In this document: in pieces, positions 1 through 9,821 of the stretch
Position numbering within the stretch: position 1 is the first letter of the stretch
Layout of the letters: each line of letters begins with the position of its first letter
IMG/VR virus record: IMGVR_UViG_2548876958_000016
Direction: 5' to 3' (one strand)
Origin: a virus
Taxonomy: Duplodnaviria; Heunggongvirae; Uroviricota; Caudoviricetes
DNA length: 11,882 nucleotides
Made by a program: the position numbers and the translations under genes
Notes under the pieces: generated by a model
Database searches by the model: none
What the model saw: only the letters and a program-made list of their open reading frames with translations
What the model was told of the DNA's origin: nothing

Positions 1-609
1 TTGTCTGGAGATTCAGGGGGCCAGTCTACCAAAGAACTGGGCGAATTATTGCAGGCACTGGACAAAAAAATATTCTCCCCCTACTACATCGCGTTAATCC
101 ACCTCCTGATTGTGTTCGGATGCCGGACGGTAGAACTGAGGTTATCGGAGATCAGCGAGTGGGATTTTACCGAAATGCTCTGGACCGTGCCGAAAGAACA
201 CAGCAAAACGAAGGTGGCAATATTCCGGCCCATACCGGAAGCAATACTGCCGTTCGTCACGCAGCTGGTGGAGCAGAACAGGCACACGGGCTTATTGCTG
301 GGGGAAGTGAAACAGGAAACAAGCGTGTCGCAGTACGGCAGATTAGCGCACAGGAGGCTAAATCACCCTCACTGGTCACTACATGACATCCGGCGCACCT
401 TTACAACGATGCTGAGCGATTTAGGCGTGGATCCTCACGTCGTGGAGCAGCTTACAGGCCACCAGATGCCAGGAATGCAGCGAGTTTATAATCATTCCCG
501 TTATCTGGATGCTAAACGCAATGCGCTGGATATGTGGATGGAGCGGTTAGGGATACTGGCGGGAACACATGAAAACGTAACCGCACTACCAGCAGCCAGA
601 AGAAAATAA
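1..609 (+). CDS. Tyrosine integrase (P4/CP4-57-like), C-terminal 202 aa; 5' end lies left of the window
   Basis: Frame-1 ORF runs from window edge to TAA at 607-609. Translation carries the tyrosine-recombinase catalytic box: HDIRRTF (His-x-x-Arg) and RVYNHSRY (catalytic Tyr). Followed in the same orientation by an alpA-like gene, as in CP4-57 (intA then alpA). Confidence 0.85.
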   Translation: MSGDSGGQSTKELGELLQALDKKIFSPYYIALIHLLIVFGCRTVELRLSEISEWDFTEMLWTVPKEHSKTKVAIFRPIPEAILPFVTQLVEQNRHTGLLLGEVKQETSVSQYGRLAHRRLNHPHWSLHDIRRTFTTMLSDLGVDPHVVEQLTGHQMPGMQRVYNHSRYLDAKRNALDMWMERLGILAGTHENVTALPAARRK

Positions 610-705: not shown

Positions 706-974
706 CGAAAAAGTACACAGGTTTATAAGTGACTGATTTTATTTGTGTGACTGTTTTTTTATACATTAGCGAATAACGCTTTAACGCGTGAGAAAAAAGG
801 CATGAAACAATATTTTATGCCTTTGTATTAACATGAATTTAAAAGATTTTATTCTTACTGTTTCATTTTCTGTAAATCATACATCCTCAATATTTGCCAT
901 TCATCACTCTAGCGGGAACAATACGACACAATAAGACACCTGATGACTCTTTAAGAAACGAAAGGGGGGCAATA

Positions 975-1163
975 GTGTTAAGCACTGATCGGTTTATACG
1001 TGAAAAAGAATGCGAAAAACTAACCGGCCTTAGCCGTACGTGTCGCTACCGCCTGGAAAAGGCCGGACAATTCCCATCACGTCGTAAACTTGGCGGTCGT
1101 TCCGTTGGCTGGTCTTTATCCGAGGTTCTGGCCTGGAAGGATAGCTGCAAGGCAGTTCATTAA
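975..1163 (+). CDS. alpA: AlpA-family phage transcriptional regulator / excision activator (63 aa from GTG 975; the track ORF begins at ATG 894)
   Basis: Translation VLSTDRFIREKECEKLTGLSRTCRYRLEKAGQFPSRRKLGGRSVGWSLSEVLAWK resembles E. coli AlpA (recalled motif ...ATIYDWLNPKSPRYDATFPKKRMLGVKSVGW..EAEIDEWL). Strong SD AAAGGGGGG at 961-969 sits 5 nt upstream of in-frame GTG 975, so the 894 start is probably too long. Confidence 0.8.
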   Translation: MLSTDRFIREKECEKLTGLSRTCRYRLEKAGQFPSRRKLGGRSVGWSLSEVLAWKDSCKAVH

Positions 1164-3059: not shown

Positions 3060-3359
3060 ATGAAACTTAAATATTCTGGCTTAACTGCCAGTGGCAACAC
3101 TCACCCTAAATTTACGCGCGGTGATATTTACCGCGACCAGTACGGCGGCACGGTAATGATTAAGGACGTGGAAGAACGGCGCGTAACCTACCGCCGTGAA
3201 GGTTACGAATATGATTGCGTGATGCCTGTTTATCAGTTCCGGCGTGATTTTTCTCTGGTACAGACCGCGCCGCATAACGTGCCCACCAGCAACGCCAGGG
3301 CACGGGCAAACATCCAGAAGCTGAAAACCATGGTTAACGGATTCAGGGGCAAGAAATGA
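3060..3359 (+). CDS. Hypothetical protein (99 aa)
   Basis: GGAGA SD upstream of ATG 3060; its stop overlaps the helicase start (ATGA at 3356-3359). Translation MKLKYSGLTASGNTHPKFTRGDIYRDQYGGTVMIKDVEERR... No family recognised. Confidence 0.65.
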   Translation: MKLKYSGLTASGNTHPKFTRGDIYRDQYGGTVMIKDVEERRVTYRREGYEYDCVMPVYQFRRDFSLVQTAPHNVPTSNARARANIQKLKTMVNGFRGKK

Positions 3360-4756
3360 AAAGCGCACCGAACTTAAAAAAACAGCCTTACGACAAGATG
3401 ACCGAAGTCATTATTTTTGCGGGTAGTGATGCCTGGGCACATGCGAAACAGTGGCAGGAACAGGACGGGCGACTGGCTGGCGATAATGTGCCTCCCGTTG
3501 TGCTGGCTGATGATCAACTGGATGAACTGGCAGACCTGAGAATCATCGACGAGGGGCGCTATTGTGTCCGGCTGTACAAGGCAGGCCACATCAGGCCATC
3601 AAATATTAATGCCATTGCGCACAAGCTGGCGGCGGCGGGTGTAACTGATGCGAATTATTACCCCGAAGGGATGCACAGCCATATGCGGGAGAACTGGCGC
3701 GAATACCTGGAACGGGTGCGCGGGAAAGAGCCGGCGGAAGAAAAAAACCACCAGCGAAAAACCACGCTACCGATGAGCGTTGGATCTACCGGATACGACA
3801 CGCAACTGGATTACGTGGTTAAGGGGATTATTCCGGCGGTATCGCTATGCAGCATATACGGGGCTAGCGGGTCCTATAAATCATTCCTTGCCGGATCGTG
3901 GGCGTGCCATGTTGCCACTGGTCGCCAGTGGGGAGGCCGCAGGGTTGCACATGGTGCGGTTCTCTATGTGGTTGGTGAAGGCGGTATAGGTGTTCCGCGT
4001 CGTGTAAAAGCCTGGGAGGTTGTGCACGATGAGCAGGTGAAAAATCTGTATCTGGTAAACCGCCCCATCTTTCCGGCTGCCCCGCTTGATGTTGATGAAA
4101 TGGTTATCGCTGCCCGTCAGGTGGAGCGGGAAACGGGTAAACCTGTACGCATGATTATTCTGGATACGCTGGCGCGTTGCTTTGGTGGGAATGATGAAAA
4201 TGATTCCCGTGATATGGGGGCGTTTATCCGTGGTTGTGACGAACTGAAACGACGCACAGGGGCCACGGTGCTGGTGGTTCACCATTCCGGCAAGGATGAG
4301 ACGAAAGGCGCGCGCGGTTCCAGTGCATTTCGTGCTTCGCTGGATGCTGAATACCGGATACGCAGGGAGGACGCAGGAAGCGAAGCGCTGGTTATCTCAT
4401 GCACCAAAATGAAGGACGCGGAGGAACTCAAAGAAGCCGCATATGACTTACGCGTGGTGGAGCTTTTTACCGACGCTGACGGTGAATTAATCACGTCGCT
4501 GGTGGTGGTGGATGATCCGCGCCCTCCTGTTGAACTGGAGCGCATCGAGGAGGCAGGGAACAAGACGGAAAACCATACCGCGCTATGGGGGTGCATCCGT
4601 TCACGCACACAGAACGGCGACAAGTGCACGATCCCGCTGTTACGTGATGACATGAAAAAGCTGGGGTATGAAATGAAAAACTTCCGGCGCTGGCTGTACA
4701 AGCTGGAAAAAGATGGGGTTATTCGTATCGATGGGGATGATGTAGCGCCGCTATAA
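3356..4756 (+). CDS. Replication initiator/helicase, RecA-fold AAA ATPase (RepA/DnaB-like, PICI Rep-type), 466 aa
   Basis: Walker A GASGSYKS (within IYGASGSYKSFLAG), Walker B-like hhhhD (RMIILDTLARCFGG) and a VLVVHHSGKD motif typical of RepA/DnaB-family helicase domains. N-terminal ~150 aa is a separate domain, possibly origin-binding. Last gene of a coupled operon and immediately followed by an iteron array. Confidence 0.85.
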   Translation: MKSAPNLKKQPYDKMTEVIIFAGSDAWAHAKQWQEQDGRLAGDNVPPVVLADDQLDELADLRIIDEGRYCVRLYKAGHIRPSNINAIAHKLAAAGVTDANYYPEGMHSHMRENWREYLERVRGKEPAEEKNHQRKTTLPMSVGSTGYDTQLDYVVKGIIPAVSLCSIYGASGSYKSFLAGSWACHVATGRQWGGRRVAHGAVLYVVGEGGIGVPRRVKAWEVVHDEQVKNLYLVNRPIFPAAPLDVDEMVIAARQVERETGKPVRMIILDTLARCFGGNDENDSRDMGAFIRGCDELKRRTGATVLVVHHSGKDETKGARGSSAFRASLDAEYRIRREDAGSEALVISCTKMKDAEELKEAAYDLRVVELFTDADGELITSLVVVDDPRPPVELERIEEAGNKTENHTALWGCIRSRTQNGDKCTIPLLRDDMKKLGYEMKNFRRWLYKLEKDGVIRIDGDDVAPL

Positions 4757-8121: not shown

Positions 8122-8535
8122 ATGGCAACGAATGAAAGCATCATGACGCTACCGCTGGCGAGTAAATTTAAAGCCGAAGCGCGGGCAATGGCTGACAGAG
8201 GTTTATCAACCTATGAGGCCGTATATCAACTAAACAAACTGGAAGAGCAGGACAAGCCGCGCGCTGATGCGATTATGGCGCTTCATGAGCATAAAGACTA
8301 TCAGCCGCTGTTACGTGCAATGGCAAACGTGCCATGTATTAGCGTCGATAATGCTCGTGAAATCCTGAACATGACCATAGAGCAGGAGCGCCCAAAGGTT
8401 GCACCAGAGCTTACCGCAGCCTTTGAAAACTTTATGGACATGCACAGCCCGCAAGCCGTATCAGCTGGCATGGCATACGATGGCAGAAACCAGGGCGATG
8501 ACGGCGACATCGATCGCATACTGAAAACCATCTGA
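8122..8535 (+). CDS. Hypothetical protein (137 aa), last gene of the capsid operon
   Basis: SD AGGGGGA (8112-8118), ATG 8122. Translation MATNESIMTLPLASKFKAEARAMADRGLSTYEAVYQLNKLEEQDKPRADAIMALHEHKDYQPLL... No family recognised. Its position after the capsid and decoration genes suggests a morphogenesis or packaging accessory role. Confidence 0.6.
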   Translation: MATNESIMTLPLASKFKAEARAMADRGLSTYEAVYQLNKLEEQDKPRADAIMALHEHKDYQPLLRAMANVPCISVDNAREILNMTIEQERPKVAPELTAAFENFMDMHSPQAVSAGMAYDGRNQGDDGDIDRILKTI

Positions 8536-8540
8536 GACAA

Positions 8541-8564
8541 GGCCGGAGAAATCCGGCTTTTTTT
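8541..8564 (+). terminator. Intrinsic terminator (copy 3 of the repeated hairpin)
   Basis: GCCGGA (8542-8547), loop GAAA, TCCGGC (8552-8557), T-run 8558-8564; almost base-for-base identical to copy 1. A second hairpin ACGGGTCC/GGACCCGT (8566-8573 and 8584-8591) follows and overlaps the start of cos. Confidence 0.7.
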
Positions 8565-8581
8565 ACGGGTCCTTTCCGGCA

Positions 8582-8640
8582 TATGGACCCGTTACGGGGC
8601 GGCGACCTCGCGGTTTTTCGCTATTTATGAGCCTTTTCAG
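8582..8640 (+). other. cos site 1: lambda-type cosN with a divergent cosB-side flank, oriented toward the small terminase gene
   Basis: GTTACGGGGCGGCGACCTCGCGGTTTTTCGCTATTTATGA (8591-8630) matches, with one mismatch, my recollection of the lambda cohesive-end region (GGGCGGCGACCT then CGCGGGTTTTCGCTATTTATGA); the 12-nt cohesive-end sequence sits at 8597-8608. After TTTATGA the sequence diverges from lambda cosB. Confidence 0.75.
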
Positions 8641-8702
8641 GGGGGTGGTGGTGGTTTTGTTGTTTGCTCTATCTTTATGAATGAAAAGGGAAAGATGCAA
8701 AC

Positions 8703-8740
8703 AATACACCAACCTGAAGCAGTAATTAAGTTGGTGTATT
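8703..8740. repeat. 11-bp inverted repeat immediately upstream of the small terminase start codon
   Basis: AATACACCAAC (8703-8713) and GTTGGTGTATT (8730-8740) separated by a 16-nt loop, ending 1 nt before ATG 8742. Candidate island-specific TerS-binding or translational control element. Confidence 0.45.
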
Positions 8741-8741
8741 A

Positions 8742-9284
8742 ATGAAATCGCACCTGATGAACAAAAAAAACATGGCGAAAAGCTGCCGTGTAAGTGCGAC
8801 AGCGTTCGACAAGTGGGGAGTGACTCCCGTTGAACGTAAAGGCCGTGAGGCGTTTTACGATGTTGCCAGCGTGATAGACAATAGGGTTAACAATGCAATT
8901 AGCCAGCTTACAAACGACAAAGGCGATATTGATGATGATGAACTCTTACGAGTCAGGATCAGATTACTGACAGCACAGGCGGAGGCGCAGGAACTTAAAA
9001 ACGAGCGCGATCGCGGTGACGTGATTGATACTGAGTTTTGCCTGTACGCGCTTTCAAAGCTGGCGAGTCAGATTTCATCAATCATGGACAGCCTCCCGCT
9101 TACTATGCAAAGGAGCTTCCCACAGATTACCCACGCCATGCTGGATAGGCTTAAAAGGGAAGTGGTTAAAGCCTGTAATGCCAGTGCCAGAGTTGCCGAC
9201 AACCTCCCACAGATACTGGCTGATTACTTGAAAGAAACAACCGGAAACGTACCGGAAAAGTTGCTACAGAAGAAAGGCGAGTAA
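8742..9284 (+). CDS. Terminase small subunit, lambda Nu1 family (180 aa; true start may be ATG 8757)
   Basis: Strong similarity to lambda Nu1 as recalled: LLTAQAEAQELKNERDRGDVIDTEFCLYALSKLASQISSIMDSLPLTMQRSFP (lambda LTRAQADAQELKNARDSAEVVETAFCTFVLSRIAGEIASILDGLPLSVQRRFP) and N-terminal MNKKNMAKS...FDKW (lambda MEVNKKQLADIFGASIRTIQNW). The C-terminal region that interacts with the large subunit in lambda looks conserved; the N-terminal DNA-recognition region is more diverged. Confidence 0.85.
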   Translation: MKSHLMNKKNMAKSCRVSATAFDKWGVTPVERKGREAFYDVASVIDNRVNNAISQLTNDKGDIDDDELLRVRIRLLTAQAEAQELKNERDRGDVIDTEFCLYALSKLASQISSIMDSLPLTMQRSFPQITHAMLDRLKREVVKACNASARVADNLPQILADYLKETTGNVPEKLLQKKGE

Positions 9285-9299
9285 CAGACGCGCAATTAT

Positions 9300-9489
9300 T
9301 GAACAAAACTGAGAAACGACATGAAAGCGTCATAAATCGCCATTTTAGATGATTACCGTGTCGTTTCTTTTTATTGTGTATCTATTTAAAAACAAATAGT
9401 TATGTTCGAGAAGTACCGACATGCTTTTTCCAGAAAAATTTTCATAAACAGATAAAAACCGCGAGGTCGCCGCCCCGTAACGGGCCATA
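9300..9489 (-). other. cos site 2: inverted lambda-like cos (cosN plus cosB-like flank) on the minus strand, pointing back toward terS
   Basis: Reverse complement of 9454-9489 equals the site-1 core. Read on the minus strand it continues GGGCGGCGACCTCGCGGTTTTTATCTGTTTATGAAAATTTTTCTGG..., then CATAACTATTTGTTTTTAAATAGATAC, AAAAGAAACGACA and GTCGTTTCTC. These resemble lambda TTTATGAAAATTTTCCGG, the I1-region CATAACTTAATGTTTTTATTTAAAATAC and R-site-like GTCGTTTCC elements, from memory. Confidence 0.75.
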
Positions 9490-9539
9490 ATTCCAGGAAG
9501 GACCCGACGACACCAGACTATCAGAGCGATGGGGGCACA

Positions 9540-9821
9540 ATGACAGAAGCCGAACTACTGGGATTAATCCGCCGCGTCGCCGGAATCAGCCAGCAGCATG
9601 ACGAACAGGCCACACAGCCGGACAGCGTGACCGCTGAAAATTATGTGCGTGTTGTAGCGGAAGTGATGCGCCGTGATGGTATAGAACTTAATGGCGTTGA
9701 TATGCGCAACATACGGAACCGCGTTCTTGAAATGCTGGCCTACAATCGCCGCGTTGAACTGTATCGGGAGAAAGAAAAAATAACGTACCACTGGAAGAAG
9801 CCGGAATGGCTGCGGCGGTAA
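9540..9821 (+). CDS. Hypothetical protein (93 aa) in the terminal accessory position of the island
   Basis: SD GGGGG (9531-9535), 4-nt spacer. Translation MTEAELLGLIRRVAGISQQHDEQATQPDSVTAENYVRVVAEVMRRDGIELNGVDMRNIRNRVLEMLAYNRRVELYREKEKITYHWKKPEWLRR. No family recognised. Confidence 0.5.
   Translation: MTEAELLGLIRRVAGISQQHDEQATQPDSVTAENYVRVVAEVMRRDGIELNGVDMRNIRNRVLEMLAYNRRVELYREKEKITYHWKKPEWLRR

Follow-up and report, generated by a model that had tools for sequence, protein, structure and literature searches.

What does a small terminase gene do in a satellite that encodes no large terminase, and which packaging site does its product read? The gene at 8742-9284 of the 11,882-nt stretch of Caudoviricetes DNA analysed here (the window) raises both questions. 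A sequence-only reading had taken it for a satellite small terminase (TerS) that recruits the helper large terminase (TerL) to the satellite's own site.

A Nu1-family terminase gene in an EcCICFT073-type island

Comparison of gene content, flanks and phoQ-side site confirms the satellite context and identifies the window as an EcCICFT073-type phage-inducible chromosomal island (PICI) of E. coli, beside phoQ. Besides the integrase, AlpA and primase-helicase genes (Table 1), it carries SSB, gpE-like, gpD-like and Nu3-like genes, and has the gene content of a classical Gram-negative PICI, with int, alpA and pri-rep in one direction. Genes for tail, lysis, portal and TerL are absent from the ORF list and the Pfam matches, and the annotation of sister islands agrees. 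Both the site and the flanks are those of EcCICFT073, whose induction and mobilisation by a helper phage have been demonstrated (PMC6092414). We rejected a capsid-forming PICI (cf-PICI), which requires its own portal, protease, head-tail connectors, HNH, TerS and TerL; the head set here consists of the gpE-like, gpD-like and Nu3-like proteins and TerS only.

Sequence comparison places the product of this real gene in the lambda Nu1 small-terminase family, as the earlier reading had done. It matches Pfam Phage_Nu1 (PF07471) with 84 bits (E 1.2e-23), above the curated family threshold of 30 bits, and PHROG 57 'terminase small subunit' over residues 1-174 (E 1.7e-52). Over the whole protein, identity is 46% to N15 gp1 and 35% to lambda Nu1 (35.2% by tblastn against lambda records), the alignment with Nu1 running up to the protein end. 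An AF2 model (pLDDT 74.7 overall, 77-86 for residues 1-50) built from an alignment that included lambda-like sequences gives the N-terminus a beta-alpha-alpha-beta-beta-alpha winged helix-turn-helix (HTH), in line with the winged helix named earlier. Foldseek alone found no significant match to this model and phmmer of the protein against the PDB found nothing relevant; a profile of satellite TerS alone retrieved lambda TerS (6hn7_B) from the PDB, weakly (E 0.005).

The gene is under purifying selection, with a dN/dS of 0.11 overall, 0.02 in the DNA-binding domain (DBD) and 0.33 at the C-terminus. A promoter scan found no sigma-70-like promoter within 8450-9600. In the window no terL follows terS, the downstream order being cos2, a 93-aa ORF and phoQ; it is the lack of a cognate gpA-type terL behind it that marks the gene as belonging to a satellite and not to a phage. 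Such isolation could also mark a decaying prophage terminase remnant with no present function, and RefSeq in places labels such islands cryptic prophage (CP-933C / O-island 51, PMC3378721). However, the conservation data effectively refute this explanation: besides the low dN/dS, the frame is intact in hundreds of genomes and in several genera, and in the satellites examined terS always lies directly after a cos site.

Table 1. Features of the island, of the two cos sites and of the terS product.
Feature	Position	Strand	Remarks
Integrase gene	1-609		ORF list and Pfam
AlpA gene	894-1163		ORF list and Pfam
AAA_25 primase-helicase gene	3356-4756		ORF list and Pfam
Terminator-like hairpin and T-run	8543..8565	+	sequence reading; RNA fold -14.2 kcal/mol, z -3.3
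cos1 core	8562..8630	+	near-identical to lambda and EcCICFT073 cos1
cosQ-like sequence of cos1	8562-8577	+	TTTACGGGTCCTTTCC
cosN of cos1, 12-nt cohesive end	8597-8608	+	GGGCGGCGACCT, lambda-identical
I2-like sequence	inside cos1 core	+	CGCTATTTATGA
Exchangeable cassette (cosB1, adaptor gene, cosB2)	8632..9430	.	between two inverted cos cores
R3-like element of private cosB	8644..8667	+	GGTGGTGGTGGTTTTGTTGTTTGC; bp 48-71 from cohesive end
Second conserved cosB element	8702..8713	-	CAATACACCAAC (reverse complement GTTGGTGTATTG); R-like, inverted orientation
Right arm of 11-bp inverted repeat	8730..8740	+	ends 1 nt before start codon
Satellite small terminase gene	8742..9284	+	180 aa
N15-type winged-HTH DBD	residues ~1-47		followed by a short acidic linker
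Nu1-like central helical domain	residues ~71-125
Satellite-type C-terminal domain	residues 126-167		followed by a 13-aa tail
cos2	9296..9510	-	convergent with cos1
R1-like element of cos2	9309-9325	-
R2-like element of cos2	9356-9372	-
I1-like AT-rich segment of cos2	~9376-9406	-
R3 of cos2	9409-9424	-	21-type, GCATGTCGGTACTTCT
cosN of cos2	9464-9475	-
cosQ-like sequence of cos2	9496-9510	-

An N15-type DNA-binding domain and a diverged tail

Identity to lambda Nu1 differs strongly between regions: 41% in the DBD (residues 1-47), 9% in the linker (48-70), 55% in the central region (71-125) and 31% in residues 126-167. The earlier reading had the central and C-terminal parts close to lambda and the N-terminal region diverged. 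This holds for the central region, the part best conserved relative to lambda and 21 TerS (49-55%), but not for residues 126-167, the gpA-binding tail in lambda, whose identity is 31% to lambda, to N15 and to the lambda-type helper of an embedded relative. The tail is thus less conserved than the DBD, and the most divergent of the structured parts. The N-terminal RVSATAFDKW does align with lambda GASIRTIQNW, but this domain is closer to N15 gp1, with 61% identity, the same indels relative to lambda and a near-identical recognition helix (S-A/V-T/Q-A-F-D-K-W-G). By these alignments it is an N15-type domain, neither an orphan nor a novel specificity. The proposed 'specificity switch' with a diverged N-terminus is better replaced by an exchangeable cassette of cosB, adaptor gene and second cosB.

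Among the satellite proteins themselves, conservation is highest in the DBD (74-96%) and lowest in the C-terminal tail (26-81%). The C-terminal half forms a lineage apart, for which no phage TerS in our collection exceeds 56% identity (31-40% for N15), and hence points to no particular matching helper TerL. The segment corresponding to the TerL-binding one of Nu1-type TerS (the C-terminal ~40 residues) keeps the helical pattern at 29-31% identity to lambda, N15 and 21, and the domain keeps a few Nu1-family invariant positions (K138, A144, N146, P156 and Y162). A tail divergence of this size (31% identity) is about the distance between lambda and phage 21, two phages between which TerS and TerL are not functionally interchangeable (PMC9026076). 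As a consequence, recruitment of the helper TerL is not readable from a tail that is equally distant from lambda, N15 and the helper. Similarity to helper TerS is greatest in the central oligomerisation region (55%), so that mixed oligomers are conceivable.

Such mixed oligomers are the basis of an alternative in which the protein is an Rpp-like adaptor: it would co-assemble with helper TerS through its central domain and bind no TerL of its own, the helper subunits giving the TerL-binding tails and the satellite subunits the DNA specificity, and helper packaging would be poisoned. The contrast between a conserved central region (49-55% to lambda and 21 TerS) and a diverged gpA-binding tail (29-31%) fits this scheme, as does the location of terS in the exact rpp slot of a swappable cassette. 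Rpp is itself thought to be TerS-derived and acts through TerS heteromers (PMC6739421), and the RppA N-terminus still matches the PHROG 57 profile. Yet Rpps are tail-less, whereas here the entire helical C-terminal domain is retained, with its invariant positions and a dN/dS of 0.33. Moreover, the lambda DBD residues that contact Rpp (Y50, E65) fall in a segment deleted from this N15-type protein. Finally, the satellite-type C-terminal half was kept in a relative whose N-terminal half was replaced (see below), which argues for a function of its own. We regard the adaptor scheme as unlikely.

A private cosB before terS and a phage-type cosB after it

The two sites are named cos1 and cos2 as in EcCICFT073, where they were tested functionally (PMC6092414, PMC6739421). 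The hairpin at 8543..8565, which a pattern scan did not list, closes the capsid/decoration/scaffold-like operon and abuts the cosQ of cos1. From there a lambda-like cosQ/cosN/I2 core reaches ~8630; past this point all relation to lambda cosB is lost, in keeping with the difference from lambda cosB noted in the earlier reading. The cosN is of the lambda type and not of the N15 type (GGGCGGCGACCT versus GGGCGGCGTCCG). terS follows cosQ-cosN-cosB directly, its start codon being bp 146 from the cohesive end.

Two elements stand out in this private cosB. The columns of the R3-like pattern, GGTGGTGGT(T)TTGTTGTT, are invariant in every examined satellite with this TerS type, and the motif occurs once in the window (0.01 expected by chance). 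It has the TTGTTGTT core in common with N15 R3 and overlaps the position of the latter (bp 48-60; PMC9026076), although it is longer and offset by 9 bp. The second element is conserved in the window, in O157 islands, in the L013 satellite and in Enterobacter-type satellites (L010-L012), more weakly in L006-L009, and overlaps the left arm of an 11-bp inverted repeat (8703-8713/8730-8740). This repeat, reported in the earlier reading, is present and perfect, but its right arm is lost outside the close subgroup (in L013 and the Enterobacter types) and its hairpin is only modestly unusual (-14.7 kcal/mol, z -2.3). On these grounds we rejected it as a conserved operator or hairpin; the right arm may be a subgroup-specific R1-like site or translational hairpin.

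The likeness to N15 could also mean that there is no switch at all, the island copying the specificity of N15-like helpers and its TerS being a redundant paralogue that reads the same site. The DBD at 61% identity, the near-identical recognition helix and the core shared with N15 R3 agree with this, and there are Enterobacter prophages with N15-identical TerS and cos, and in one of them (L021) an integrase has inserted behind the D gene. Nevertheless, the lambda-type cosN, the satellite's distinct C-terminal half, the longer and offset R3-like element and the lambda-type helper of the sole fully readable embedded pair make this account very improbable.

On the other side of the gene, the cos2 elements form a complete lambdoid phage-type cosB (R3-I1-R2-R1) that ends at the terS stop codon. 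The cos cores flanking terS are convergent and lambda-identical, and the inverted arms (8566-8637 / 9435-9506) are 82% complementary. In O157 islands all three cos2 R elements are switched jointly to the CAGATCC type, while the L013 and L005 satellites and those of the Enterobacter type have cos1 and terS without cos2. Neither this second, inverted cos site nor the N15 gp1-like N-terminal domain had appeared in the sequence-only reading.

With a complete lambdoid cosB co-varying as a set among island variants, the helper terminase could package the island through cos2 without the satellite TerS. The protein would then be mainly an interference decoy that titrates or misdirects helper TerL, packaging being left to cos2 and helper TerS; SaPIs and EcCICFT073 do link packaging redirection to interference (PMC6739421). 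However, this does not explain the satellites with cos1 and terS that lack cos2. A pure decoy would also have no need of a DBD that is the most constrained part of the protein (dN/dS 0.02) or of the R3-like element conserved alongside it, and EcCICFT073 transfer needs cos1, not cos2 (PMC6092414). We give this explanation a low probability, below that of the adaptor scheme.

Cassette exchange, prevalence and a natural chimera

When the island is aligned with EcCICFT073 and compared with that of E. coli 042, terS falls directly downstream of cos1, exactly in the rppA slot: the same cassette position holds rpp in EcCICFT073 (rppA) and in 042. Islands of the O157 terS type and of the 042 rpp type share 98-100% identity up to the cassette borders, but their cassettes are unrelated. 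In support of the earlier reading, the product is a full-length TerS and not an Rpp, since BLASTP against RppA gives E 1.3 and tblastn of RppA and of the RppC N-terminus against the window gives nothing below E 1.

Relatives came from two sources, the protein database and the E. coli genomes; a scan of genome contigs with the protein gave no confirmed relative. Of the 5426 complete E. coli genomes, 595 carry the cassette at a coverage of at least 80%, and only 53 carry the EcCICFT073 rppA cassette at comparable coverage, in a count restricted to the RppA type, without RppB and RppC. All relatives down to 57% identity with examined genomic context (P0102, P0109) lie inside such satellites, some of which are embedded in lambdoid prophage late genes. 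For example, the L013 relative (87% identical) belongs to a satellite embedded in a prophage with lambda-identical cos, Nu1 and gpA, a natural satellite-helper pair. We searched for more embedded pairs to assess co-variation between the TerS C-terminus and helper TerL: two loci were chromosomal islands with no adjacent helper, and metagenomic loci end before the helper terminase genes.

One relative from sister islands (P0144) is a natural chimera. Its residues 1-102 are 97% identical to a 21-like phage TerS, its C-terminal half is of the same satellite type as here, and the cos1 of its islands bears 21/lambda-type R elements. Since a 21-type N-terminal half comes with 21/lambda-type R elements and the C-terminal half is unchanged, DBD and cosB swap together; the C-terminal half is, by this comparison, a constant satellite module. 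Across three cassette types, DBD type and cosB type change in step, as would be expected if the TerS recognises the site of the satellite itself. This co-variation lends good, if indirect, support to the earlier claim of such recognition. The DBD and cosB of the P0144 islands are helper-like, so there must be more to the possession of a satellite TerS than a private address. In surveys the 'small terminase' figures among the core components of PICIs (PMC10085698), and the literature accessible without subscription yielded no experimental work on Nu1-type TerS from classical PICIs.

Proposed mechanism and implications

We lean, with modest confidence, towards a small terminase of the lambda Nu1 family that is encoded by the satellite, is functional and works as follows. 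A lambdoid helper would induce the island, which would excise and replicate. Dimers of TerS would bind the private cosB through the N15-type winged-helix domain, at the R3-like element (bp 48-71 of cos1) and probably also at the inverted R-like element (bp 106-117). The C-terminal half would recruit the helper's gpA-type large terminase, which would nick the lambda-identical cosN at 8597-8608; island concatemers would then be packaged rightward into helper-built heads, with the conserved cosQ used for termination. Since a lambda-type TerS needs R3 and R2 of its own kind, helper TerS should ignore cos1, which would make it a private address. Reading of its own cos site by the satellite TerS is the well-supported part of this scheme, from sequence; we infer direct recruitment of the helper large terminase, and likewise DNA binding at the named cosB element, the direction and unit number of packaging, and helper interference. 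Engineered 21/lambda chimeric TerS owe their cosB specificity to the N-terminal half and their TerL specificity to the C-terminal half (PMC9026076). N15 terminase packages lambda DNA, but lambda cannot package N15 DNA (PMC9026076). Like that of N15, the DBD of the satellite TerS may recognise lambda R3 as well, so specificity may be one-directional only.

A broader reading of all these patterns is possible but tentative. E. coli cos-type PICIs would carry an exchangeable packaging-address cassette between convergent cos cores. One side would hold a private cosB and an adaptor, either Rpp or a full-length TerS with a swappable N15- or 21-type DNA-binding half; the other would hold a cosB of the phage type (R3-I1-R2-R1), co-varying to suit different helpers. 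The constant C-terminal half of TerS would be the module that captures the large terminases of several lambdoid helper types or enters helper TerS oligomers. If so, hijacking of the TerS type, and not by Rpp, would be prevalent in E. coli, including the O-island-51-type islands of O157:H7 and Nissle 1917.

Rpp is the only packaging-hijack mechanism worked out so far for E. coli cos-type PICIs, and judging from the sequence comparisons terS probably marks a candidate second, common way for these islands to enter helper heads. If TerS works as proposed, it would explain the spread of many E. coli islands, such as the ones in O157:H7 strains and in Nissle 1917. Domain swaps that arose in nature offer a ready system to map the DNA-reading and TerL-engaging halves of a cos TerS. 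Paired private and public cos sites also bear on why some PICIs have two cos sites, an open question in PMC6739421.

Comparison with known systems

The satellite protein shares with lambda gpNu1 and N15 gp1 (PF07471) the order of winged-HTH DBD, helical oligomerisation region and C-terminal domain, and its gene likewise lies just downstream of cosQ-cosN-cosB; N15 is nearest in DBD and R3-like site. Unlike in these phages, no terL lies behind the gene, the C-terminal half is a separate lineage with a 13-aa C-terminal tail, and a lambda-type cosN is combined with an N15-like DBD and cosB. The engineered lambda-21 chimeric TerS of the Feiss laboratory (PMC9026076) has a natural equivalent in P0144, with its 21-type N-terminal half and satellite-type C-terminal half, but is a laboratory construct of two phages and no satellite gene.

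With RppA, RppB and RppC (Fillol-Salom 2019, PMC6739421) the protein shares the island family, the slot after cos1, the swappable cassette and the presumed job of directing the helper terminase to the island's private cosB. In the cosB of both, GGT/ACC triplets are repeated at bp 48-65, but the strand is the opposite one. However, Rpps are 135-153 aa long (PMC9026076), have no TerL-binding tail and act only as heteromers with helper TerS, and EcCICFT073 transfer strictly needs the helper's own TerS; the satellite TerS is full-length, at 180 aa. In concept the closest parallel is the SaPI TerS_S, a satellite TerS that works with helper TerL and reads the satellite's own packaging site. By description SaPI TerS is set apart by pac-type headful packaging, an unrelated TerS family and the aid of Ppi. 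If it works as proposed, the protein would be the equivalent, for cos phages, of the small terminase of SaPIs, in a system that keeps the helper cosN and cosQ and alters only cosB.

An exchangeable cassette between facing cos cores

The island in the window encodes an integrase fragment, AlpA, an AAA_25 primase-helicase, an SSB, a gpE-like capsid protein and a gpD-like decoration protein, followed by phoQ. We found no large terminase, portal, tail or lysis genes in the window's ORF list or with Pfam. EcCICFT073 in E. coli CFT073 occupies the same phoQ-side site and has the same gene order. Direct alignment showed that the two islands are near-identical up to ~8631, just past cosN/I2, and again from ~9430 on. 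Between these points they are unrelated: CFT073 has rppA (144 aa) and the window has a Nu1-like ORF, here terS. The same contrast is seen between an O157 island of terS type and the rpp-type island of E. coli 042: their DNA agrees at 98-100% on either side of the cassette and shows no relation within it, and RefSeq lists their capsid and decoration proteins under identical accessions. RppA did not match the ORF (BLASTP, E 1.3), and tblastn searches with RppA and the RppC N-terminus found no Rpp in the window. The breakpoints of the exchange coincide with the arms of a 72-nt inverted repeat, which are two complete, facing cos cores (cosQ-cosN-I2) on either side of terS. The terS cassette is common: 595 of 5426 complete genomes, Nissle 1917 and many O157:H7 strains among them, carry it at a coverage of at least 80%. 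For the rppA cassette the number at this coverage is 53, and 297 genomes show a match of any kind (RppB and RppC are uncounted here).

Coordinates of the cassette, its cos sites and the parts of the satellite TerS
Feature	Position	Strand	Description
cosQ-like	8562-8577		TTTACGGGTCCTTTCC; lambda-type cos upstream of terS (cos1)
Cohesive end	8597-8608		GGGCGGCGACCT, identical to lambda's; cosN of cos1
I2-like stretch of cos1	to ~8630
terS ORF	8742-9284	+	180 aa
DNA-binding domain (DBD)	residues 1-47
Linker	residues 48-70
Central helical region	residues 71-125
C-terminal region	residues 126-167
cos2	9296-9475	-	cosN, then a full lambdoid cosB: 21-type R3, I1-like AT-rich block, R2-like and R1-like in turn; cosQ precedes cosN
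Inverted repeat around cassette	8566-8637 / 9435-9506		72 nt, 82% complementary

Three features flank the cassette. An ORF of 137 aa (8122-8535) separates the decoration gene from cos1. Pfam gives no match to it; its similarity is to PHROG 53 'head maturation protease', in the C-terminal portion of that family (positions 495-567 of 583, E 1.7e-10). This stretch corresponds to the lambda Nu3 scaffold region; hence the island may encode capsid, decoration and scaffold-like proteins. A strong hairpin followed by seven T residues (8543-8565; -14.2 kcal/mol, z -3.3) closes the capsid operon and abuts cosQ, and a promoter scan found no sigma-70-like promoter between it and terS. Downstream of the cassette, all island variants examined, rpp- or terS-type, with or without cos2, have an ORF of 93 aa with no assigned function (9540-9821; PHROG 1561, E 3e-57).

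A Nu1-type small terminase under selection

Pfam Phage_Nu1 matches the ORF with 84 bits (cutoff 30), PHROG 57 'terminase small subunit' covers its residues 1-174 (E 1.7e-52) and RefSeq already labels the protein 'terminase small subunit'. BLASTP gave 35% identity with lambda Nu1 (E 5e-35). Among 50,697 records the top phage match is N15 gp1 (46%), and lambda-like phages range from 31 to 36%. The sequence-only reading had described central and C-terminal parts close to lambda and a diverged N-terminus. This holds for the central region (55% identity to lambda Nu1) and fails for the C-terminal region (31%), the counterpart of the ~40 C-terminal residues of lambda TerS that bind gpA (PMC9026076). 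The DBD, at 41%, is less diverged than the latter, and the linker stands at 9%. The N-terminal domain is also no orphan: it is 61% identical to that of N15 gp1, and the two have three indels relative to lambda in common. The closest phage in the collection to the C-terminal half is PhiR5_1 (56%), with N15 and lambda-like phages at ~40%.

The dN/dS between terS of the window and the 87%-identical gene of the satellite L013 is 0.11 overall, which by this measure clearly marks a functional gene. The tightest constraint lies on the DNA-binding part (DBD 0.02, central region 0.06, C-terminus 0.33). Between the E. coli (180 aa) and Enterobacter/Citrobacter (168-170 aa) forms, the DBD is the best-kept part (74-79%) and the C-terminal tail the least kept (26-38%). 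Such conservation excludes a dead remnant, to which we give almost no credence. The E. coli satellite TerS have in common a 13-residue tail (GNVPEKLLQKKGE and variants; residues 168-180, 9243-9281; dN/dS 0.42), absent from lambda, N15, 21 and Enterobacter-type satellite TerS.

AlphaFold gave a pLDDT of 57 on a shallow alignment and 74.7 on a broader one, with residues 1-50 at 77-86. The latter predicts a winged-helix-type topology for the N-terminal domain, as the earlier reading assumed: beta, alpha1, alpha2, a beta-beta wing and alpha3, then long helices. Foldseek searches of PDB with this model returned no significant match, the weak top matches being MerR-like winged-helix domains. Since the underlying alignment took in lambda-like sequences, the model is supportive and not independent evidence.

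The DNA-binding half and cosB change together

Beyond ~8630, cos1 has nothing in common with lambda cosB, from which the sequence-only reading had noticed it to differ; the terS start codon is at bp 146 from the cohesive end. Our comparison of cos regions took in eight satellites of TerS type together with N15. All satellites that encode this kind of TerS contain GGTGGTGGT(G or TT)TTGTTGTT at ~bp 48-70, counted from the cohesive end. This is the R3 position of lambda (bp 50-65) and N15 (bp 48-60, GAGGTTGTTGTTT) (PMC9026076), and the TTGTTGTT core is invariant across the satellites compared and N15. The motif occurs once in the window (8647-8664; chance expectation 0.01 matches). A second element, CAATACACC(A/C)AC at bp 106-117, reads as a related R-like sequence on the opposite strand and is kept in the E. 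coli types and one Enterobacter type. The 11-bp perfect inverted repeat reported earlier (8703-8713/8730-8740) exists; its right arm, which may be a third, subgroup-specific copy, is degenerate in L013 and absent in Enterobacter types. In the Rpp-type EcCICFT073 (L002), cos1 bp 54-64 read ACCACCACCAC, the reverse complement of GGTGGTGGTGG at bp 48-58 of the window (8644-8654). ACCACCACCAC has been proposed as the R3 to which Rpp binds in PICI-A, and it and GGTGGTGGTGG lie nearly equally far from cosN. The degenerate cos2 of L018, an island with a chimeric TerS (below), likewise carries ACACCACCAC.

A Nu1-family profile search revealed P0144, a chimeric TerS of 194 aa. It is encoded by islands of EcCICFT073 type (L018-L020; gene at L018:6001-6585) that occupy this phoQ-side slot too. 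Over residues 1-102 it matches the 21-like TerS of CFT073 prophage 4 with 97% identity. The rest, starting at residue 103, is satellite-type: its central region is 89% and its C-terminus 62% identical to the window's. Its cos1 has 21/lambda-type R elements (GCATGTCAG..., AGAAACGACAT, TTCATGTCGT) in place of the GGT/GTT element. Hence, the DNA-binding half and cosB are swapped together, as expected if TerS reads the neighbouring site, and the C-terminal half is the constant, satellite-specific module. This co-variation favours the earlier proposal that the satellite TerS recognises its own site. The P0144 islands also have a one-base cosN variant in cos1, GGGCGTCGACCT.

A second, phage-type cos

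Read in its own orientation (bp 1 at 9475, leftward), cos2 has a 21-type R3, GCATGTCGGTACTTCT, near-identical to that of CFT073 prophage 4, and its R array reaches precisely to the terS stop codon. O157 islands (L014:2145-2400) have all three R elements jointly swapped for a CAGATCC type, at unchanged positions. This concerted change indicates a real phage-type TerS-binding array, and suggests that cos2 is a 'public' cos that suits certain helper phages. By this reading of the elements, terS is sandwiched between a private cos and a facing public, phage-type one. Some relatives lack cos2 (L005/L013, Enterobacter types). Between the R2-like and R1-like elements of cos2, GCGATTTATGACGCTTT (9324-9340, -) resembles the cos1 I2 segment CGCTATTTATGAGCCTTT (82% inverted pair) and could be left over from an additional cos fragment. 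The two sites admit an interference decoy, in which the satellite TerS mainly blocks the helper and the island is packaged via cos2; we regard this as improbable.

Proposed packaging mechanism and candidate helpers

The most likely reading, which we hold slightly above even, is that the satellite TerS would use its N15-type DBD to bind the private cosB of cos1 and its C-terminal half to bring in the gpA-type TerL of a helper. TerL would then cleave the shared cosN and package island concatemers. N15 terminase packages lambda DNA, and N15-type cos is not packaged by lambda (PMC9026076). By analogy with the latter, the cos1 address would be private with respect to lambda-type TerS. TerL recruitment is where the mechanism is weakest: the satellite tail is as distant from lambda's as that of phage 21, and lambda and 21 TerS/TerL do not cross-function. 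An unlikely but weightier alternative than the decoy is an Rpp-like adaptor: the satellite TerS would enter helper TerS oligomers through its conserved central domain and borrow the tails of the helper subunits.

The lambda-type cosN of the island argues for gpA-type nucleases of lambda/21/80-like helpers. The L013 satellite (NZ_CP032892.1, 13168-22764) sits within the portal gene of a lambdoid prophage with cos and Nu1 essentially lambda's, then a gpA-type TerL; its TerS is 37% identical to that of this helper. Enterobacter/Citrobacter satellites (L006-L012) lie inside capsid gene E of lambdoid prophages. Together with L013 they form a helper-embedded arrangement among close relatives of the window island. 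Some Enterobacter prophages have TerS and cos identical to those of N15, and one of these (L021) carries an integrase inserted after its D gene. That the satellite TerS is a copy of N15-type helper specificity seems to us quite improbable.

Relation to known systems

Satellite-encoded small terminases are an established idea from SaPI TerS, and 'small terminase' is given as a PICI core component (PMC10085698). For E. coli cos-type PICIs, open-access papers describe Rpp only, and EcCICFT073 and the 042 island are stated to be without TerS. A 2018 paper names strains IHE3034 and 18098 as having TerS-encoding islands. Our search of the open-access literature turned up no experiments on a TerS of the Nu1 type in any classical PICI. 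In engineered 21/lambda chimeric TerS, specificity for cosB comes from the N-terminal half and specificity for TerL from the C-terminal half (PMC9026076). The natural chimera P0144 mirrors this laboratory one.
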